The notes below the pieces were generated by a model that was not told the origin of the DNA, did not search any database, and was given only the letters and a program-made list of their open reading frames with translations. From NCBI RefSeq assembly GCF_057098645.1, contig NZ_CM169472.1: a stretch of DNA of 64,000 nt. One strand, given 5' to 3'. Positions 4,033-61,204 of this stretch are shown piece after piece (position 1 is the stretch's first letter; the number at the start of each line of letters is the position of its first letter). The position numbers and the translations under genes are program-made.

Positions 4033-4710
4033 CTAGAACGTGACAGCCTTGTCAAAGCCAGAAATAATTGTATAAGAAATAGACGAGTTATCAGCCTTGT
4101 TCACTTTGAACTTGGCACCTTTGTAAGCGATAACGTCACTTCCCTTAGAATCTACAGAAAAATCTGTTGTAAATGCTGCACGAGCCATATCGTTTGCAAA
4201 TTCACGATAGGTGAACTTCATTACACCGCCTGCATTTCCATTGTATTCGATAGTCTTAACCAATGAGTTACTAACTCGACACAGCCCATCAGGAACACGT
4301 TTGATAGAAATTTCTGATGCAGTATAAGAAGTACCATTTGGCGGTGATATCTCATTTTTTGCAGCATCGTAACTAACATAATCAACATAGTTACCGATTT
4401 GCCCATAGAGATTTTTTAACGCAACAGCTTGAGGGTTATGATAATTGCGGTAAATTCCATTCCCCTCACTGCAATATGTACCAGCAGCGATAGAAGACAA
4501 TGCACCATTAGCCGCACCAAGTTCTAGTACGTCCGTTTTAAATCCAGTAGCAGATGTGATAATGGGATCGCCCATGTAGGCGGTAGCACTTTGCCCAATA
4601 GCAGGCTTCACCACTTCAATAGCAGTGATATTTCGGTTAGAAGCATGTGGCACGCAACCAGTTAGGATTACAGCAAGAGATATTGGTAACGCTACATTAT
4701 TAATTTTCAT
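4033..4710 (-). CDS. Predicted lipoprotein, unknown function (prophage cargo)
   Basis: Start MKINNVALPISLAVILTGC with lipobox LTGC. 225-aa ORF with no family recognised. Confidence 0.65.
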   Translation of the reverse strand: MKINNVALPISLAVILTGCVPHASNRNITAIEVVKPAIGQSATAYMGDPIITSATGFKTDVLELGAANGALSSIAAGTYCSEGNGIYRNYHNPQAVALKNLYGQIGNYVDYVSYDAAKNEISPPNGTSYTASEISIKRVPDGLCRVSNSLVKTIEYNGNAGGVMKFTYREFANDMARAAFTTDFSVDSKGSDVIAYKGAKFKVNKADNSSISYTIISGFDKAVTF

Positions 4711-5067: not shown

Positions 5068-5256
5068 TCAGCTGATGACATCCATTGAGCGGTTGTATTC
5101 GTGGCTTCTGATTTTTGCCATGAGTTCATCAGTCAATTCAGAAACCCACTGCAGAGCCAGCCCCTTCTCTTCATCACTACACTCACTAGCCGCTACAAGC
5201 TTAAGAAAAAAATCAATGCGCTGGAGCTTCAAAGACTCCAAAAAATAGTCCTGCAT
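5068..5256 (-). CDS. Small hypothetical protein, first gene of the SOS-box operon
   Basis: 62-aa ORF with strong RBS aggagga, 11 nt upstream of the DinI-like gene. Confidence 0.5.
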   Translation of the reverse strand: MQDYFLESLKLQRIDFFLKLVAASECSDEEKGLALQWVSELTDELMAKIRSHEYNRSMDVIS

Positions 5257-5297
5257 CTTTCCTCCTATGACACCACAAGAAATACTGTATGTATAAC

Positions 5298-5318: not shown

Positions 5319-7515
5319 ATAATAATCTTACTGATGTAAAACGTTTTTTTTACGCTTATCAGCTTGATATGCCTGGTATTATTAAGAGCACGAATTGTTA
5401 ACCAGCGTAATTAATACAGGTTCCGCCACTTATCATCTTCCTGCAAACGCTGGTTCCGATAGAAGATACGCAGGCCTGCTCCTGACGGAATACTGCCGCC
5501 GCGAAGGAGTAAATCGACCTCTTTCTCGCTGCCATCAAATCCTCTGGATTTCAGTTCATAGACGAGCTGCTGTCGTTGATGGTCTGTAATTCGCTGTTTG
5601 TAGTCTCTACGCCGTTTCGGTTTCACCAGACGTAACCTTGCAGCCAGTTCCCGGCGCTCCTTTTTGTTCATACTGTGCAGGTAATCGTGCAACTCCTTGT
5701 CATCCATGCGGGTAAAGTCCGTTCTGGGGTCCCCATCAGCTGATTTATCTTTCTCCTGTTGGTTCAAATTTTCAGCAAGGGGACAGTTATTGCCACGAGT
5801 CCAAGGGGCGCAAGCGCCCTGGTCGGCTGCCGCCTCCTGAACGTCAACGGCCTTACGAACCATTTTCCACTTCACTGCATGAGTACAAATCTTGCCCTCT
5901 GCAATGGGTGACCAGATGCCATAAATACGAATACCGTGATCGCCATAGGCGGTCGGCTCTTCGTTAATTTCATAAGCTGTTCTGATAAGGTGATATTTGC
6001 GGGGAACCAGTACGCCGCCCTGCTTCATAATGTAGGTGGCAAAACAACCAGCATCAGCAGCAGCCAGAATGGCATCAAGGCGCGGGTTATCCAGTACCGG
6101 CGCACCTGCTTTTTTGTCACCCTGTTGCCTTGCCGCCTGACCAGCCAGCAATCGCAATTCACGGTACGCCTGACGCCCCGGAATACCAAAGAAGCGAAAT
6201 TGCTGAACACGATGCAGAGACGCCCAGGCATTAACGTATTCAGCGTTATCACGCAGGGATTTACCCGTTTCCTTGCTGATTTCGCCAGCCAGACCACGCC
6301 CATCAATGTTCTTACTGATGTATTTCGCGATGTAGCTTGTCGGCGTTCCTTTTCGCGGGTTAATCAGCTCAGACTTAAAGCGCGGCCCCGTGTTATTGCC
6401 CAGCTCCTCACGGTCTTCACGGATAGCAAACTTACGCAACAATGCAGTAATGGCGCGGCGGTCTTTTTTGCGCATGAAACACAACAGGTGCCAGTGAACT
6501 GTGCCGTCATGATGCGGCTCAGCCACCCGCACGCCATACCAGCGCAACCCGGCTTTGTGCATCGCCTTACGAAATGCAGCAAACATACCGACCAGATAAT
6601 CGCTGCTTTGTCTTACCGTCGCATTTGTCCATGTCGGGTTGGGTCTGCCGTTATTGAGCGTGGAATGGAAACGTGACGGACAGGTAATGGTGTAGAAAAC
6701 GGCGCAGTCACCGCGCATTTCCGCGATAAGCTCCAGACCTTTAACACAGGCCATCATCTCATTGCGACGATGCGCCGGGTTGCTGCTGCTGGCGTTTACC
6801 ACATCTTCCATATCCAGCGCGTCTCCGTCTTCGTTCACCAGTTCATGAGAACGGAAAAACTCCAGTGACTTACGGCGCTGCTCACGTTTATGCATCACGG
6901 CTTCATAGCTGACATAGGGAGATGCTTTTTTGCTGACCAGGCAGACAGCACGCAACTGCTCTTCCCGCCATTCGCAACGCATCTTCCACAATTTCCGATA
7001 CCACCAGTCGGCGCACAGCATACGCGCCAGCGAACCCGGAATGAGTTCATAGGGCACGGGTTTACGGCGGTTTCTTTTCCGACGGAGTTGCTCAAACGCA
7101 GGCGGGATGACATCCAGACGCAGGGTTTCCGCTGCCACCTTTTCCCATGTCTTGCGGATTTCTTCTGGCTTAACGTCATCGGTGGCATACAAATCACCAC
7201 AAGCTGCATCAAGGCACATACTCATATGCGCAGCTACCAAGGTGGACAGGCGTTTCACCTGATCCTGACTCATTTCAGGCAGGATCAGCAGGCCGTCCAG
7301 CCCTTCATGGCTTGCCATAAAGCGAAAAGATGCAGATAGCTGACTGTCGCGTACATGCTCCAGTCGTTCCAGACATGGCTTAATCGTCTCACGTAAATAG
7401 CGGGAATAAGCCTTTGTGCGTATTCCGCTCTATTCGATCACGGATTGGCATCGAAGTCCGATCAGCGATTCGCATCCATTCGATCAACCGGGAACTTAAC
7501 TTTTTCTACCGCTTT

Positions 7516-8271
7516 TTAACGCGTTTTTTCGCTGCTTTCCACTACCGGGGGATTTTTCCTCAGTGACTCTCCCTGAAGGACCACTCGGTGTGAGTTATGT
7601 ACCAGTCTGTCCAGGATGGCATCTGCTGTTGTTGGGTTCTCCATCAGACCATGCCATTTATCTACCGGGAACTGGCTTACCACTATCGTGCTGCTTTGTC
7701 CGTAACGATCCTCTATGAGCTCCAGAAGGTCATTACACTGGGCGTTACTTAACTGTTCCAGCCCCAGATCGTCCAGGATTAGAACCTGTATTTTTTGCAA
7801 CTGTTTCAGATATTTCAGCCAGCTGCCATCAACACGTCCCTGAGCCAGTTGTTCCAGTAATCGCCCGGTTCTACAGTACCGGACGCTGTGTTTCTGTCGA
7901 CATGCCTGTTCGCCCAGCGCATTGGCTATCCAGCTCTTGCCACATCCTGTCGGACCGGTTATCAGCAGGTTTTTCCTGTGGGTTATGTAGTGGCCGTTCA
8001 GCAGTTCTCTCATCTGTTCAGCCCGCAGACCTCTTGAGGCCGGATAGCGCAGCCCTTCCGGTGTTGCCTGGTATTTCAGGCCGGCATTTTTTCTCAACCG
8101 TGCCACACGGCTGTTTTCCCTGCTCAGAAGCTCGTCATCAACCAGCAGCGTCAGCCTTTCCTCGAACGACAGTTCGTCGTAGGTCTGAGGCGTTTCCCGC
8201 TGCCGTATCAGGCTCCCGGCCATCGCCGGGAGTTTCAGTTGGGTCAGTTTGTTTAACAGGTTATCACTCAT
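7516..8271 (-). CDS. istB: IS21-family helper ATPase IstB
   Basis: MSDNLLNKL.. with Walker A GPTGCGKS and Walker B LILDDLG. Confidence 0.9.
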   Translation of the reverse strand: MSDNLLNKLTQLKLPAMAGSLIRQRETPQTYDELSFEERLTLLVDDELLSRENSRVARLRKNAGLKYQATPEGLRYPASRGLRAEQMRELLNGHYITHRKNLLITGPTGCGKSWIANALGEQACRQKHSVRYCRTGRLLEQLAQGRVDGSWLKYLKQLQKIQVLILDDLGLEQLSNAQCNDLLELIEDRYGQSSTIVVSQFPVDKWHGLMENPTTADAILDRLVHNSHRVVLQGESLRKNPPVVESSEKTR

Positions 8272-31749: not shown

Positions 31750-31904
31750 GTTCTCCCTTGCCTTACTCAAGGTCAGAAACACAAAACCCCGTTTGCGGCC
31801 AACAAACGGGGTTTTACTTTTATTCACTTAGTTTTTGCCAGTTCGCAGGATTTCGTGTTATCCGCCAGTGTGAGCAAACCGCATTTTTCAGCAAAATATT
31901 CTGC

Positions 31905-52880: not shown

Positions 52881-53084
52881 ATGAGTAGCTTATTTTTAAC
52901 CGAAGATGAATTGCTAATATTAACGGGCTGCAAATATGCAAGCCACCAGCGAAAATGGTTAACGGAAAACGGGCTTCCGTTCTATACCAATCGTAGTGGC
53001 AAACCGATTGTCAGCCGGGATCTATTTACCTGCAATAAAACTTTACCACCACGCGAGGTAGAGCCGAATTTTGGTGCAATCTGA
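52881..53084 (+). CDS. Excisionase-like small protein
   Basis: 67 aa immediately upstream of int with a TGATG overlap. Confidence 0.55.
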   Translation: MSSLFLTEDELLILTGCKYASHQRKWLTENGLPFYTNRSGKPIVSRDLFTCNKTLPPREVEPNFGAI

Positions 53085-54109
53085 TGGGAAGACGAAGGAA
53101 AAATCCTGAACACGAAAAACTACCTCCAAATGTATACCCAAATAAATATAGTTATGTATGGAAACCAACATCCAGAGAATCTGTCACACTAACCGCCATC
53201 AAGGATGGTTTAGCTGCTTTATGGAAAAGGTATGAGGAAACTGTAAATAATCGCGATCGCGCAATGACATTCGGTCGCTTGTGGGAAAAATTCCTCGCCA
53301 GCGCCTATTACAGTGACCTCAGTCCAAGAACACAAAAAGATTATCTACAACATCAAAAAAAGTTGCTTGCCGTATTCGGTAAGGTGCCGGCAGATTCCAT
53401 AAAACCAGAACACATCCGTCGATACATGGACAAGAGAGGGGAGCAGAGTAAAACGCAAGCCAACCATGAAAAAAGCAGTATGTCCCGCGTTTACAGTTGG
53501 GGGTATGAGCGAGGGTACGTGAAGGGTAACCCATGTGCAGGTGTAAGTAAATTCAAGGCCAAAAACCGCGAACGATATGTAACCGACAAAGAATACCAGG
53601 CAGTATTAAGCGTTGCACCTCTTCCTGTTTTTATCGCAATGGAAATTGCCTATCTGTGTGCAGCGAGGGTTTCCGATGTGTTATCGCTGAAATGGGAGCA
53701 GATTGGAAACGACGGAATCTTTATCCAGCAAGGGAAAACAGGAAAAAAACAGATAAAAGCATGGAGTCCACGATTACAGGCGGCGATCGAAAAAGCAAAA
53801 CAGTTACCAACATCCGCCTATGTAATCAGTAATCAATACGGCAACCGATATATGTACAAAGGCTTTAACGAAATGTGGGTAGAAGCAAGAAATCGCGCAG
53901 GCAAAATTTCAGGTATTTTAACCGACTTCACCTTTCATGATCTGAAGGCGAAAGGAATTTCAGACTATGAAGGAAGCAGTCGGGATAAGCAACTTTTCTC
54001 TGGTCACAAAACCGAGGGGCAAGTGCTAATCTATGACAGGAAGGTTAAAGTTTCACCGACACTTGATGTCCCGTTACCTGAAAATATTCCAAGAAAATAT
54101 TCCAAGTAA
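53084..54109 (+). CDS. int: Lambda-family tyrosine integrase
   Basis: MGRRRKNPEHEKLPPNVY.. (lambda Int starts MGRRRSHERRDLPPNLY). C-terminal ..FHDLKA..GH.. catalytic region. Adjacent to tRNA-Ser. Confidence 0.85.
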   Translation: MGRRRKNPEHEKLPPNVYPNKYSYVWKPTSRESVTLTAIKDGLAALWKRYEETVNNRDRAMTFGRLWEKFLASAYYSDLSPRTQKDYLQHQKKLLAVFGKVPADSIKPEHIRRYMDKRGEQSKTQANHEKSSMSRVYSWGYERGYVKGNPCAGVSKFKAKNRERYVTDKEYQAVLSVAPLPVFIAMEIAYLCAARVSDVLSLKWEQIGNDGIFIQQGKTGKKQIKAWSPRLQAAIEKAKQLPTSAYVISNQYGNRYMYKGFNEMWVEARNRAGKISGILTDFTFHDLKAKGISDYEGSSRDKQLFSGHKTEGQVLIYDRKVKVSPTLDVPLPENIPRKYSK

Positions 54110-54161: not shown

Positions 54162-54251
54162 TGGCGGAGAGAGGGGGATTTGAACCCCCGGTGGAGTTGC
54201 CCCCACTCCGGTTTTCGAGACCGGTCCGTTCAGCCGCTCCGGCATCTCTCC
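54162..54251 (-). tRNA. serU: tRNA-Ser (anticodon CGA), serU; 3' 62 nt supplied by the prophage
   Basis: ggagagatgccggagcggctgaacggaccggtctCGAaaaccgg...CCA, with the long variable arm of class II tRNA. Confidence 0.9.
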
Positions 54252-55242: not shown

Positions 55243-55318
55243 TCCTCTGTAGTTCAGTCGGTAGAACGGCGGACTGTTAATCCGTATGTCACTGGTTCGA
55301 GTCCAGTCAGAGGAGCCA
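55243..55318 (+). tRNA. asnT: tRNA-Asn (anticodon GUU), asnT position
   Basis: tcctctgtagttcagtcggtagaacggcggactGTTaatccg..ggttcgagtcc..CCA. Confidence 0.9.
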
Positions 55319-55479: not shown

Positions 55480-56742
55480 ATGTCTTTAAACGATTCTAAA
55501 ATCCGCAAGTTAAAATCTTCTTCCCGTCCGGTAAAACTCTCCGACTCTCACGGTCTGTATCTGCTCGTCAATCCGGGCGGTTCGCGCATCTGGTATCTCA
55601 AATATCGTTTCAACGGAAAAGAATCCAGGGTCAGTCTTGGCGCATATCCGCTGGTCTCACTGGCAGAAGCCAGGCAGCAGCGCGACGGTATCCGTAAGCT
55701 ACTGGCGCAGAATATCAACCCGGCGCAACAGCGCATGGCAGAGAAATCCGCCTGCTCCCCTGAAAAGTGCTTTAAAGCGGTGGCGCTGGCCTGGCACAAA
55801 ACCAACAAAAAATGGTCGGCTGATTATGCCGCCCGTATTCTCGCCAGTATGGAAAACCATATCTTCCCGGCGGTTGGTCACCTGCCCGTTGCTGCGCTTA
55901 AAACGCAGGATTTCACCGCACTGCTGCGGGTTATTGAGGATAAGGGCTTTCTGGAAGTCGCGTCCCGCACGCGACAGCAACTCAGCAACATCATGCGCTA
56001 TGCCGTTCAGCAGGGACTTACCGACAGTAACCCGGCGCAGCATCTGGAAGGCGTTGTCTCCTCCCCCGTAAAGAATCACTACCCCGCGTTACCGCTGGAG
56101 CGGTTGTCCGAACTGCTTGGCCGCATCGGTGACTATCAGCAGGGCCGGGAGTTAACCCGGCTGGCGGTGGTGCTGACACTGCACCTGTTCATCCGTTCCA
56201 GCGAACTGCGTTTCGCCCGCTGGAGCGAGATCGATTTCAGGCACAAAATCTGGACCATCCCCGCCACCCGCGAGGCCATCGACAAAGTTCGGTTTTCGGG
56301 GCGTGGCGCAAAAATGCGTACCCCGCATATCGTACCGCTCTCCCGCCAGGCGATTGCCCTTCTGAAACAGATACAGGAGCTTTCCGGCCATCTGGATCTG
56401 GTGTTTCCCGGCGATCATAATCCGTACAAGCCAATGAGCGAAAACACAACCAACCGGGCGCTGCGCCTGATGGGGTATGACACGAAAACTGAAATCTGCG
56501 GGCATGGACTCAAGGCAATGGCCTGTAGCGCCCTGGTGGAGTCGGACCTGTGGTCACGCGATACGGTGGAGCGGCAAATGAGCCACCAGGAGCGCAACAG
56601 CGTGCGGGCGGCATATGTGCATAAAGCAGAGCATCTGGAGGCCAGAAAGGCCATGATGCAGTGGTGGTCGGATTATCTGGATGTGTGCCGCGAGGGGTAT
56701 GTTGCGCCGTACATTTATGCCCGGCAGCATAAGGCAGCCTGA
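55480..56742 (+). CDS. P4-type tyrosine integrase of the asnT island
   Basis: MSLNDSKIRKLKSSSRPVKLSDSHGLYLLVNPGGSRIWYLKYRF.., a typical P4/HPI-like Int, 160 bp after the tRNA. Confidence 0.85.
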   Translation: MSLNDSKIRKLKSSSRPVKLSDSHGLYLLVNPGGSRIWYLKYRFNGKESRVSLGAYPLVSLAEARQQRDGIRKLLAQNINPAQQRMAEKSACSPEKCFKAVALAWHKTNKKWSADYAARILASMENHIFPAVGHLPVAALKTQDFTALLRVIEDKGFLEVASRTRQQLSNIMRYAVQQGLTDSNPAQHLEGVVSSPVKNHYPALPLERLSELLGRIGDYQQGRELTRLAVVLTLHLFIRSSELRFARWSEIDFRHKIWTIPATREAIDKVRFSGRGAKMRTPHIVPLSRQAIALLKQIQELSGHLDLVFPGDHNPYKPMSENTTNRALRLMGYDTKTEICGHGLKAMACSALVESDLWSRDTVERQMSHQERNSVRAAYVHKAEHLEARKAMMQWWSDYLDVCREGYVAPYIYARQHKAA

Positions 56743-56777
56743 ATCAGAAATAGCGTAAATCATTAAAACCGGAAAAG

Positions 56778-56808
56778 CAGATCCTGATTGACCGGGATCT
56801 GTTTTTTT
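56778..56808 (+). terminator. Intrinsic terminator after the integrase gene
   Basis: cagatcc-N10-ggatctg followed by T7. Confidence 0.5.
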
Positions 56809-56927
56809 GTATTGAGAGGTATTGTTGCTGTTTTTGTTATTATTAATTGGGAAGCACCGAAAATTATTCCAGTAGAATATTTGCAGGCGACTGCCTATTA
56901 ATAAATGCATTATTGATAGATAACTAC

Positions 56928-56957
56928 CTTCTGTGATTTGCCCGCAAATCACAGAAG
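56928..56957. repeat. Palindrome 1: 12-bp arms cttctgtgattt / aaatcacagaag, 6-nt spacer
   Basis: Read directly. Shares the core CTTCYGTGATT with palindrome 2. Confidence 0.8.
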
Positions 56958-57153
56958 ATGAAAACCTATCAATACGGGATATTTTCACGGAAATACCAAT
57001 TAATACTCCAGAATATCTCCTGACCATATACTCTGAAACCTGTAAGAACTGCATCAGATATTGAGAGACCAGATAGATGTAAGTCTGAAATTATTTTGTT
57101 TCCAATGATTTCAGGCGAAAAACCTATCAATACATCTGTTTTCAATAGGCAGC

Positions 57154-57189
57154 CACCTTCCGTGATTAACATGTTAATCACGGAAGGTG
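57154..57189. repeat. Palindrome 2: perfect 36-bp spacerless palindrome
   Basis: caccttccgtgattaacatgttaatcacggaaggtg equals its own reverse complement. Confidence 0.85.
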
Positions 57190-57512
57190 AAAAGCTTTCA
57201 ATAATCGATATTTCCACGGTATTACCACTTAATACATCCCAAAAAATGCGCCATAAAATACCGGACAATCTTTCCTGATACACATTATCACTGCACCAGC
57301 TATACAGAGACAAAATAATCTGCACCCGTCCTGGATAATCTGCTATCTGCGCCAGCGTCCCGCCGCTCTACCTGTTCAGGGCTGCGCCAGTTCCTGGCCC
57401 TTTAGTTTTTGGCCCTTTCAGGTCAGGCGCTGTTACCCTTATCGCCCCCTTAACCTTTATGACCCTTTCCCTTTCTGGCGCAACCAGTTTATTTGGAAAT
57501 GCTCCATGACAG

Positions 57513-57527
57513 TCTGCACCAGACTGT
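57513..57527. repeat. Inverted copy of the 15-mer acagtctggtgcaga
   Basis: tctgcaccagactgt is the reverse complement of 59304-59318. Lies within the near-palindrome acagtctg-cac-cagactgt. Confidence 0.75.
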
Positions 57528-58040
57528 ATTTTCACCACAGGATAACGATCACAAAGTGCAAAAAATAACATGAAGCACCGAAGATTCTTAATTCATATGA
57601 AGCAGGTTATTATGCCAAAAACCGTCGCAGCATTTTTATAAAATCATGAGGCATCCTGAGACCATATAATATATGTCACAGGATACGGAAAAACACAGAG
57701 AGAATTATTCAGATATAAGCCTGCACCAAAATTAATGTGATGCCCCGGTGAATTTACATTTTAAAATTTCCCCAGCCCTGTAGTATTGGTAAAAATGAAT
57801 GAAACACCTGTTATCAATTGGAATCGTTTCGAGTGATTACAGGGTAATCACTATAATATCCCGGCAAACTATATTGGTTAAGCAGGAGAATCTGATCTGT
57901 TGATATTTATTCGTCATGCTGTAACGATATTTTCACAATATAAACCCGTTCGCCCCCTGCGCCAGATCCGGAACATAGGGTACGATAAATCGCTGTCGTT
58001 ACACAGTAACCGCATTATTTTGCGCCATTCATGAACTCAG

Positions 58041-58924
58041 TCATTCCTCCTTCCAGCGGTAGCCGTACACCTGTTTCACCCAGCGACCGCGACCGTCGCC
58101 ATGACCCAGATCCGTCGCCGTCAGCGCCAGTGACTCCTTTTCGCTGAATCCCTGTTCCAGATAATGGCGGATCGCATCCTGCGCCCATGCATAACGCAGG
58201 GAGTGCGGGGAAAATTCGCCTGTCAGCCCCACTTTAACCGCCTGTCTGTGCCAGTGATTCATGGCTGTTTTAAGGTCGGGCTTGTCGATCAGCCTGCTAT
58301 TGCATTGTTCTGCTGCAAGTAACGCTTTTTCAAGGGCTTTCCTGACTGCGCCAGTATCCAGGACTGTCGTATGGCGGGGACGACCGCCCTTGGTGCCAAA
58401 CACCACTTTCAGCCGGTTTTCCCCGCGTTCAATGGTTTTCAGCCACGTTTTCAGCGACTGTGAACTCTGTACCGCCTCCTGCGAACGTAGCCCCATCAGC
58501 CGCGCAATCTCCAGCACTGCCGCCAGCCCTGCGTCCTGAGTGCGGGCTTTCTCCATCACCTGCTGGTAATGTTCCGGCGTGATGGCGCGGCGCGTGCCGT
58601 TGCGCGAAGCGCCTGACACCCCTAATGCCTTATTGGTCAGACGCGGATGCTCCACCACCTGCCTGCGTTCAGCCTATCTCAGCACGGTCCGCAACGCTGC
58701 CATTCCGTTTTGCAGCGTTCGTAAACCAATATCCTGCTCCAGCCGTTCCTCAATGTAGCATTCGATATGGCGAACCTTGATCTGCTGCACCCGCTGGATC
58801 TGGATATTCAGCGCCCGTAAATGTTCACTGAACCGTTTGTAATATGGATATGGTCATTCACCGTTTTGAAGCTGCCGCCCGCTTTCTTCGCCAGCGCCTT
58901 CATTTCACTGCTTAATTTACTCAT
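58041..58924 (-). pseudogene. Tyrosine recombinase (integrase-fold) gene with one frameshift and one in-frame TAG
   Basis: MSKLSSEMKALAKK.. then frame change near 58825-58840. TAG at 58674-58676. The downstream part keeps the catalytic ..GGRPR.. and HSLRYAWAQD ... VYGY motifs. Confidence 0.7.
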
Positions 58925-59253
58925 GAATCCCCTGCAACATAAACAAACAGTCTCCGGCGTGTGCTGTTTGGCTGCGCCAGAACGATACCTTCACGCCGGA
59001 GTGGCTGGTTGTTGAGGTTTAAGGAGTTTCAGGCTGTACGCGGTACAGACTGCCTGACGAAGCAGGGGTGTCTCCGGAGCATCGTGCCCCCCTCGGTATC
59101 GATCTTTTTCTCCTTTACTCTGAGCTGACAGCTGCCCCAAAGGGCATGTCAGACGGCGGAAATATGGCGCAGGCCAGGACTGGCGCGGCTTGCGGCGGTG
59201 AGTTGTGCGGCGTCACTTTGCCCTGTCGCTGGCGCGACCAAAGTGACGCCTTG

Positions 59254-59317
59254 TCTGGTGCAGGGGGGAAACGTTGCGCTTCTGGTGCAGTATTCAAAAA
59301 TTAACAGTCTGGTGCAG
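59254..59317. repeat. Three perfect TCTGGTGCAG direct repeats phased exactly 27 bp apart
   Basis: Copies start at 59254, 59281 and 59308. They lie 330-390 bp upstream of the recombinase pseudogene start. Confidence 0.85.
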
Positions 59318-59733
59318 ATTAACGGTCACGCGGCAGCAAAGCCTGCTGTCTTTGCAGGCCGCAGCCCGTCATGTAAAAGGCGCTGGTCATCAGCAAGGGA
59401 TAAGTAGGCCGGAGAAATTCCGGCAAAGGAAAGCCGTTCAGCCGGTGAAGGCCATTGCGGTAAAGCGATGACGATGGAGCTGTCCTTGTATATATGTACT
59501 TCGCCTCAAACACTTTCGCGTTCCGGTATTGCGGAGGTCGTACCGGTAGCAAGGGCTGGTCGTCCTGTTAAATCAGGGGCTTCTTGCAGACCATGAAGCC
59601 AAAGGGTGCCCGAAGGCATAGTGCAGGAGGGAGATTACACCGTTATTTCTGGCGCAGAAAGGGGAAATTCATTTTTCTGGAAAAAGGGTTTCCCCTTGAT
59701 TTTAACGTGTATTTGTGAACGTGAAATGCTGAG

Positions 59734-60869: not shown

Positions 60870-61204
60870 TGGACAATCTCCAGTATGTGGTTTTAAATCC
60901 ACCATCAGAGGTTCCAATCTCCTGGGTGGTGGACTGAGCGAGGTTGGAACTACCGATCATACTGGAACCGGCGCACTTTGCAGTGCCCTCACCCAGCCCA
61001 CCATTGAGGTACAGCCAAGCGCACGACACAAAAAATGTGTCGCCAGTATGAATAATCCGGGGTTCCAATCCCGACGCCTGATTTTGCAGACGCAGGCTAA
61101 GGATACTGTGATTAGCAATGAGTCACATGAGGGCATATGGATATCCCGGAGCAGACTTACCGGGGCCAGTACCTCGCCAGAAAGAGCGCCGTTCCTGTTA
61201 TTTA

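Follow-up and report, generated by a model that had tools for sequence, protein, structure and literature searches.

In ICEBs1, the single-strand origin (sso) sso1 directly follows the relaxase gene nicK and folds into stem-loops as single-stranded DNA (PMC4595007), and the single-strand initiation site (ssi) of pIGRK lies just downstream of mobK, a gene of the MOB_M relaxase family (PMC8152469). The MOB_M family is related to the tyrosine recombinases and has WP_033567157.1 as a seed sequence; its members are reported to be the commonest relaxases of enterobacterial chromosomes, to be usually mis-annotated as integrases and to lie near a true integrase in 96% of cases (bioRxiv 10.64898/2026.01.13.699239). 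PF12835 serves the Burrus group as the signature of the MpsA-type atypical relaxase of Salmonella genomic island 1 (SGI1) (PMC10484663), and in SGI1 a small RNA (sgm-sRNA) encoded between mpsA and the origin of transfer (oriT) is essential for MpsA-dependent mobilization (PMC9299015). An oriT is usually found upstream of the relaxase gene, in the first large intergenic region on that side, and the STAXI motif (Rfam RF01728) has been proposed to act as single-stranded DNA. MOB_M relaxases have been recognized only recently, and their cis-acting DNA is almost unknown. Here, we describe a group of palindrome-centred DNA modules in an asn-tRNA island of Escherichia coli, located between the island integrase gene and a MOB_M relaxase-like gene, in a 64,000-nt stretch of contig NZ_CM169472.1 (assembly GCF_057098645.1; hereafter, the window). 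The window is identical to strains C325 and UTME-3, and is 99.9% identical to O145:H28 genomes.

The spacer between the two genes (56743–58040) is 1.3 kb long, untranslated and 34–47% GC. It contains two hairpin modules (34–37% GC), each of approximately 96 bp and consisting of a perfect or near-perfect 26–36-bp palindrome between conserved asymmetric boxes. These modules are real, non-random, unannotated and narrowly distributed. The features concerned are as follows.

56862–57092, plus strand: tandem unit 1 of a diverged duplication of approximately 230 bp (pairwise alignment with unit 2; repeat families D1, D2, D3 and D8)
57093–57335, plus strand: tandem unit 2, aligning end to end with unit 1
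56895–56990, plus strand: hairpin module 1, comprising the CTATTAATA box, TATTGATAG, palindrome P1 and then the A and B boxes (covariance-model match of 111.7 bits)
56928–56957, no strand: palindrome P1, CTTCTGTGATTT-GCCCGC-AAATCACAGAAG, with a 12-6-12 layout
56961–57006, plus strand: A box (AAAACCTATCAATAC) and B box (ATATTTTCACGGAAATACCAATTAATA) of module 1 (repeat family D2, inverted pair I6; near-invariant columns in the 25-module alignment)
57124–57219, plus strand: hairpin module 2 (covariance-model match of 106.6 bits)
57154–57189, no strand: palindrome P2, a perfect 36-mer with 18-bp arms (inverted pair I4, 100% complementary)
57190–57235, plus strand: diverged A box (AAAAGCTTTCAATAAT) and B box of module 2 (repeat family D2; 25-module alignment)
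57832–57852, no strand: palindrome P3, AGTGATTAC AGG GTAATCACT, with a GTGATTA half-site as in P2

The original prediction, made from the letters of the window, had described P1, P2, the boxes AAAACCTATCAATAC and AAAAGCTTTCAATAAT and a core shared by both palindromes, CTTCYGTGATT, and all of these match the window sequence in position and in letters. It had further placed them in diverged duplicated modules downstream of the asnT-island integrase. Both the position and the duplication were confirmed, the units being larger, at approximately 230 bp, than had been described, and alleles with a single module were found. The core of the duplication is 113 nt long with 73% identity at a spacing of 229 nt; Tandem Repeats Finder did not detect it because the copies are too diverged. 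Unit 2 is the unit kept in the single-module alleles L004 and L005. The A box AAAACCTATCAATAC at 56961 has an exact second copy at 57119, and the related CACGG...TTAATAC boxes make up repeat family D2. Each palindrome is centred in a longer imperfect inverted repeat, TATTGATAG ... CTATCAATA (inverted pair I1), the left flank of the module reading CTATYAATA ... TTGATAG and the right flank (A/G)TGAAAAYCTATCAATA ... ATATTTYCACGG. A by-eye comparison of the A box with the IHF and DnaA consensus sequences gave nothing convincing. Across alleles, one to four modules are present in the distal part of an AT-rich untranslated spacer of 1.0–1.4 kb.

As single-stranded DNA, module 1 folds at −18.3 kcal/mol (z −6.4) and module 2 at −18.7 kcal/mol (z −5.8); on either strand, the modules (95–97 nt) reach −17 to −19 kcal/mol with z-scores of −5.2 to −6.4, values equalled by no shuffle. 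Among the perfect inverted repeats of the window with a spacer of at most 8 nt, P2 and P1 rank first and second in length, and only one other inverted repeat has arms of at least 11 bp, namely, a 13-bp, terminator-like hairpin at 31783. Strictly read, P1 has 14-bp arms and a 2-nt centre in the perfect inverted-repeat scan of the window. Exact matches to CTTCYGTGATT in the 64 kb are confined to the four half-sites of P1 and P2. When one mismatch was allowed, six matches were obtained against 2.1 expected, a number reached by no shuffle. GTGATT-N8-AATCAC is common to P1 and P2, and P3 has a similar half-site with N7–8; P3 itself folds at −6.5 kcal/mol (z −2.95) and is kept in most alleles. The original prediction had also regarded a spacerless 36-bp palindrome as unusual in E. 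coli, as a target of SbcCD. This argument was overstated: SbcCD-dependent inviability concerns palindromes well over 100 bp, and the 30–36-bp palindromes of the modules are stably inherited in hundreds of genomes.

We then compared the modules among alleles, which were gathered through an anchor in the integrase terminator (56773–56806) and are referred to by locus number. In a gap-free alignment of 25 modules, the flanking boxes were near-invariant. In the inner helix, 94% of cells were paired, compared with 33–42% in slid controls, and changes on both sides were found in 6 of the 15 inner-helix pairs. P1 and P2 differ at four arm positions, all of which fall in complementary pairs (two pairs). 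Likewise, L036 carries CCATG/CATGG in place of CCGTG/CACGG, the centre of L005 is ACGCGT in place of ACATGT, and ATTTTGATTTGCATGCAAATCAAAAT of L055 differs from P1 by three double changes, including GTGATT to TTGATT. The outer TATTGATAG/CTATCAATA helix showed no covariation. The centre of P1 varies (GCCTGC and GTCCGC) while P1 is otherwise conserved; the conserved part of P2 is only the inner 30 bp, CTTCCGTGATTAACATGTTAATCACGGAAG, and its outer CACC/GGTG is disrupted in some alleles. The palindromes recur in related islands with symmetry-keeping changes on both arms, and their conservation tracks palindromic symmetry and not codon positions. Compared with the window, the module regions are 79–97% identical and the third codon positions of the integrase gene are 72–96% identical; in Salmonella, the corresponding values are 40–58% and 59%. 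The primary-sequence drift of the modules therefore appears roughly neutral by this measure.

A second type of palindrome occupies the same setting. In L018 and L024 the P-type palindrome is absent, and a perfect palindrome, Q (AAAATTATTCACCGGTGAATAATTTT), is present instead, followed by the same A and B boxes. In the Salmonella spacer there are three palindromes of the Q type, and a related box comes after each of them. Within one and the same array, the Q-type stem (AAAATTATTCACC...) is unrelated to the P-type stem carrying CTTCYGTGATT, while the flanks are common to both. A covariance model built from the 25 distinct P modules recovered Q modules in L018 (60.8 bits), L015 (33.2 bits), L002 (27.5 bits) and the Salmonella locus L059 (33.2 and 27.8 bits). 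The model gave no match elsewhere in the window, in the distant MOB_M loci L060–L064 or in 673 kb of unrelated DNA containing the 15-mer box. Since the model built from P modules recovers Q modules, P and Q modules are, as judged from their sequences, one family, with a variable palindrome and conserved asymmetric flanks. The window itself contains a degenerate member.

56840–56904, no strand: degenerate Q-type palindrome (inverted pair I3, 70% complementary; fold z −1.4, not significant)

In other alleles an intact Q palindrome is located here, and the segment is a remnant of a further module.

Of 5,426 complete E. coli genomes, 433 (approximately 8%) contain the spacer, always in the chromosome, with a median of one place per genome and a maximum of four to six. 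Among these places, every locus fetched adjoins an asn-tRNA integrase gene or its remnant. No further module copy was found in the window. Outside E. coli, the spacer was detected in Escherichia whittamii and in one much diverged record of Salmonella India (L059), with the same gene order. In a palindrome pattern scan of one genome per species, only E. whittamii and chance matches were obtained. A blastn search gave no match in the phage collection, and the sole match in the plasmid collection was the homologous Salmonella island; judged from these collections, the modules appear to be neither a mimic of the oriT of a known plasmid nor a phage element. In viral contigs, matches to the 15-mer A box numbered at least 120 and were attributed to chance, the covariance model matching none of the 80 fetched, and a scan of the viral contigs at the protein level yielded nothing beyond the same E. 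coli contig.

The number of modules varies among alleles. A single module is present in E7-1N7, AR Bank #0349 and E. whittamii, and L004 and L005 have only a P2-type module, while L002 and L016 have both modules and an additional upstream module. In E7-1N7, the integrase gene (RMO93_RS10330) and the relaxase-like gene (RMO93_RS10325) are both intact. The E. whittamii allele is a hybrid, in which an intact P1 is continued by the tail of module 2, the two being fused within the A box. No inverted segment and no spacer-crossover product was found among approximately 30 alleles, and an invertible or deletable segment between lox-like sites was rejected on this ground. Slippage and unequal exchange are the main modes of change in the spacer, as seen in a 14-nt insertion, a 70-nt extra Q module and a 45-nt deletion in the GC-rich block described below. 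The 14-nt insertion (CCAGAATATCTGCA next to CCAGAATATCTCC) lies between the modules in L003 (approximately 4170–4200) and in metagenome alleles (L027, L033 and others), and looks like a local tandem duplication.

The setting of the modules depends on the identity of the gene to the right of the spacer, which the original prediction had missed; this key neighbour, an integrase-like gene, is a member of the family of MOB_M relaxases. From left to right, the features are tRNA-Ser, mtfA, asnT, integrase, terminator, spacer, relaxase-like gene and EFASI, of which those flanking the spacer are listed here.

55243–55318, plus strand: tRNA-Asn gene (asnT), the island integration site (ARAGORN, Rfam tRNA and RefSeq of the identical O145:H28 locus)
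55480–56742, plus strand: P4-type tyrosine integrase gene, 420 amino acids (aa) from the RefSeq start (Pfam Arm-DNA-bind_3, Phage_int_M and Phage_integrase; RefSeq tyrosine-type recombinase/integrase)
56773–56806, no strand: integrase terminator, a GC-rich hairpin with T-runs on both strands (inverted pair I9; present in all alleles)
58041–58924, minus strand: Integrase_1/Phage_int_SAM_2 gene, a homologue of MOB_M of the MpsA/SGI-4 type (RefSeq 'frameshifted; internal stop')
58979–59107, minus strand: EFASI RNA motif (Rfam RF02957; score of 94.1 bits, gathering score 51.2), immediately 5′ of the relaxase-like gene
59255–59317, minus strand: three copies of CTGCACCAG at 27-nt intervals (starts 59255, 59282 and 59309), upstream of EFASI

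The intact allele of the relaxase-like gene in L005 (294 aa) matches PF12835 (Integrase_1) at 1e-58 and PF12834 (Phage_int_SAM_2) at 4e-38, and its product is 48% identical over 293 aa (E 1e-99) to WP_033567157.1 from the Salmonella conjugative element SGI-4 (pSGI4). By this homology, the gene at 58041–58924 is a member of the MOB_M relaxase family. With such a neighbour, the island is an integrative mobilizable element and the modules lie inside its integration and mobilization cassette; the same layout is shared by a family of such asn-tRNA islands in Escherichia and Salmonella. The relaxase-like gene is convergent with the integrase gene, and the modules lie 3′ of it, 700–1100 nt past its stop codon. 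No obvious terminator was found 3′ of the relaxase-like gene. The integrase terminator at 56773–56806 is probably bidirectional. EFASI and the relaxase-like gene are arranged in the same way in L005, L059, L060 (SGI-4) and L061. From its parallel position, EFASI may be the equivalent of the sgm-sRNA of SGI1. Likewise, EFASI and the region upstream of it, including the three CTGCACCAG copies, are likely the oriT side of the cassette, by position.

Taken together, the explanation that we tentatively prefer, as a possibility short of an even chance, is that the modules are structure-specified cis-acting DNA hairpins of the mobilization cassette, perhaps resembling single-strand origins. The presence of unrelated stems between the same flanks in one array suggests recognition of an extruded hairpin with its flanks, and not of a duplex half-site. 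The modules would thus be cis-acting DNA signals of the mobilization cassette that act, most plausibly, at a stage when the island DNA is single-stranded, as in conjugative transfer or rolling-circle replication, and could serve as sso- or ssi-like priming sites or as accessory relaxosome sites. As is the case for ICEBs1 sso1 and pIGRK ssi, the modules are non-coding, located 3′ of a relaxase or relaxase-like gene and able to form stable stem-loops when single-stranded, and both have one to three strong stem-loops and an asymmetric layout, in which orientation may play a part. In contrast, sso1 and ssi are imperfect hairpins immediately after the relaxase gene, while the modules are perfect palindromes 700–1100 nt away from it. 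STAXI shares with the modules a neighbourhood of EFASI and an Integrase_1/MOB_M gene, a tandem arrangement of a hairpin and a conserved unpaired motif, and the suggested action as single-stranded DNA, but it consists of pseudoknots and not of simple long hairpins, its sequences are different, and our covariance model misses the SGI-4 locus. The oriTs of MOB_M elements (SGI1, pIGRK and pCW3) likewise lie beside a gene for a relaxase of the tyrosine-recombinase type and contain several inverted and direct repeats. However, they are upstream of the relaxase gene, while the modules are downstream, AT-rich and much longer; the SGI1 oriT, for example, lies beyond the small RNA, is GC-rich and 125 bp long and has a 7-bp inverted repeat.

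Several observations weigh against this explanation. Blastn searches of the plasmid and phage collections did not relate the modules by sequence to a known sso, ssi or oriT. They are absent from other MOB_M loci, including the 72%-identical Salmonella homologue L064 and SGI-4, and are therefore not a general requirement of the relaxase family. Single-arm variants give G.T pairs on the plus and minus strands about equally, so that no functional strand can be named. The centres of several palindromes are fully symmetric (ACATGT, ACGCGT, GCATGC, ACCGGT and TACGTA), a property that a hairpin does not need and that points to symmetrizing at the DNA level or to duplex recognition. Template-switch correction of quasipalindromes can yield symmetric double changes without selection. 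In addition, the integrase or relaxase-like genes are pseudogenized in many islands of the family, this window included. Since the relaxase-like gene is a pseudogene here, the modules of this strain are probably relics.

A second explanation, which we consider unlikely, is that the palindromes are neutral and self-perpetuating in a decaying AT-rich spacer, their duplication, copy number and apparently compensatory changes all being mutational and produced by unequal crossing-over between flanking boxes together with template-switch correction. Module divergence close to that of integrase third codon positions, alleles with zero, one, two or three P or Q modules and some with no P module at all, the pseudogenes in many carriers, the outer helix without covariation and the symmetric centres, which selection for a hairpin leaves unexplained, all agree with it. 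However, the module architecture is found at the same position in Salmonella despite 59% identity at integrase third positions, the flanking boxes are far better conserved than the stems, and new palindromes of different sequence always appear between the same boxes, which looks like constraint. The symmetric centres would also suit recognition as duplex DNA. In the original prediction, the palindromes had been proposed as paired binding sites for a dimeric regulator or recombinase, and we consider it unlikely that they are duplex sites of a dimeric island protein (the MOB_M protein, the integrase core domain or a helix-turn-helix (HTH) regulator), that is, lox/dif-like cores or operators paired by duplication. 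P1 and P2 both have two inverted arms of 11–13 bp around a spacer of 6–8 bp in a 12-6-12 arrangement, which is the geometry of simple tyrosine-recombinase core sites. The shared GTGATT-N8-AATCAC with its counterpart in P3, the two genes of the tyrosine-recombinase type flanking the spacer, and a non-random array of CTGYRCCAG, resembling protein sites, point in the same direction. The geometry of the proposal thus stood, as did its resemblance to loxP, FRT and dif/cer, which share the 12-6-12 layout and for which the locus offers a gene of the tyrosine-recombinase fold on each side, but the proposal as a whole is weakened. Unlike in loxP, FRT and dif/cer, the module arms vary within the array, to the point that Q and P stems between shared flanks are unrelated, and the P2 spacer is itself symmetric. 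L055 alters three arm pairs, including GTGATT to TTGATT, neither inversions nor spacer-crossover products were seen between alleles, and the junction of the E. whittamii hybrid lies outside the palindrome spacer. The CTTCYGTGATT half-site was not found on the attL side or upstream of the relaxase-like gene, and the oriTs reported for MOB_M relaxases are upstream, not downstream, of the relaxase gene. A related reading, which we regard as quite improbable, combines structure with recombination: the modules would be attC-like folded sites of recombination or nicking, read as single-stranded DNA by the MOB_M relaxase, as a second transfer origin or terminus or as a priming site. In integron attC sites, conserved outer boxes enclose a variable palindromic centre that is kept by structure, the sites form tandem arrays, and the folded single strand is read by a tyrosine recombinase. 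The modules differ in having no sequence relation to attC and neither cassette open reading frames (ORFs) nor IntI nearby, and extrahelical bases were not identified, so that attC provides an analogy only. If this reading were true, it would show how the abundant chromosomal MOB_M family reads its DNA.

We also considered products encoded by the region. That the modules are RNA hairpins of the minus strand, belonging to a long 3′ untranslated region of the relaxase operon or to a small RNA ending at 56773–56806, and stabilizing or terminating transcripts in a REP-like manner, appears improbable. A minus-strand promoter-like site is present in the most conserved block upstream of module 2.

57284–57313, minus strand: sigma-70-like promoter match TTGTCT-18-GATAAT (9 of 12 positions, a consensus match only), in the conserved block ACTGCACCAGCTATACAGAGACAA and pointing into the modules

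On the minus strand, P1 was scored as resembling a terminator, the relaxase-like gene has no obvious terminator of its own, the cassette is rich in RNA motifs (EFASI, C4, isrK and c4-a1b1), and the small RNA of SGI1 is essential for MpsA-dependent mobilization. Nevertheless, promoter and terminator matches in the region did not exceed shuffle expectation, the bulge-free perfect stems of 15–18 bp with symmetric centres are atypical of functional RNAs, and the wobble pairs show no strand bias. In Rfam scans, the modules had no family match at E≤1 and STAXI was not found in the window; a permissive scan gave a spurious mir-2944 match on the P1 hairpin (25 bits against a gathering score of 56), and no match was obtained in 56743–58040 at the gathering threshold. 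REP/BIME and ERIC sequences, which are likewise palindromes, imperfect or perfect, grouped in the gaps between convergent genes, have tens to hundreds of dispersed copies per genome, while the modules are confined to the island spacer, with a median of one place per genome. That the region is an internally duplicated gene for a small protein, whether decayed, as had also been proposed, or real, is hardly credible. A 118-aa ORF on the minus strand spans the region, and RefSeq has a 99-aa hypothetical protein at the locus in the O145 lineage only. However, the ORF is intact in the window lineage only and is broken in all other alleles by indels of −1, −2, −8 or +14 nt, the NCBI pipeline annotates nothing at the modules in most genomes, none of the four spacer ORFs had a Pfam match at E≤0.1, and conservation follows symmetry. 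On the same grounds (indels, no Pfam match and symmetry-wise conservation), the 118-aa ORF and the 43- and 60-aa plus-strand ORFs were rejected as protein genes. The region is non-coding.

Together with the 9-mer arrays described next, the modules represent candidate signals of the single-strand stage or relaxosome for a widespread family of asn-tRNA islands, the cargo of which includes type VI secretion genes. They also offer a natural example of palindromes in which symmetry is maintained while sequence turns over, which helps to separate selection for structure from template-switch mutation. If they are neutral, the result is a description of a decaying island spacer only.

The 9-mer CTGYRCCAG is present in 17 exact copies in the window against 1.75 expected, an approximately tenfold excess, and 12 of these lie within 57291–59657. 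The copies in the spacer form an array.

57291–57965, plus strand: CTGYRCCAG array, with exact copies at 57291, 57347, 57382, 57514 and 57957, and copies with one mismatch at 57049, 57320 and 57721

The orientation is plus on the 3′ side of the relaxase-like gene and mostly minus on its 5′ side (59255–59657). This layout is the same in E. coli, E. whittamii and the Salmonella relatives, and is not seen in SGI-4. One such box ends each duplicated unit, namely, CTGCATCAG at 57049 and CTGCACCAG at 57291. The copies look like protein-binding sites, for which they are candidates. A role as arm-type sites of the integrase was rejected, as the spacer motifs were not found between the tRNA gene and the start of the integrase gene. 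Within the spacer, a GC-rich block at 57386–57485 with GGCCCTTT/CCCTTTC repeats is the best-conserved part, at 85–98% identity among E. coli alleles, and is recognizable in the Salmonella locus L059 at 4370–4450. As a coding sequence, this block (57341–57560) was rejected, because the reading frame shifts among alleles.

Other MOB_M loci show related arrangements. In excised SGI-4 (L060), the MOB_M gene (6001–6903) is bracketed by two STAXI motifs of the same orientation (5096–5266 and 7570–7720), with EFASI (5742–5890) between the first STAXI and the MOB_M gene, a layout that fits a place for STAXI in the oriT or the single-stranded DNA apparatus of these elements. The Salmonella locus L059 contains a second Integrase_1-type gene (722–1606) with a STAXI motif upstream (8–150), and approximately 70 nt downstream of this gene is a perfect 49-bp palindrome (24-1-24; 1674–1722) of unrelated sequence. 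This palindrome was the one further case of a long palindrome downstream of other MOB_M genes, indicating that such an arrangement is not general.

Beyond EFASI, the island of the window continues with higA, an HTH gene, a 153-aa ORF, C4/isrK/c4-a1b1 motifs and type VI secretion genes. The 153-aa ORF and the HTH gene are preceded on their upstream side by C4 antisense RNA, isrK and c4-a1b1 target motifs (60922–61106, minus strand), which make up an RNA immunity module of the P1/P4 type and recur in L005 and L059. On the other side of the island, an intact 341-aa lambdoid prophage integrase gene (53084–54109, plus strand) abuts the tRNA-Ser gene (serU; 54162–54251, minus strand), so that the adjacent tRNA genes on either side of mtfA are associated with two different integrative elements. 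In O145:H28 strain RM12581, the gene corresponding to this lambdoid integrase is annotated as frameshifted.

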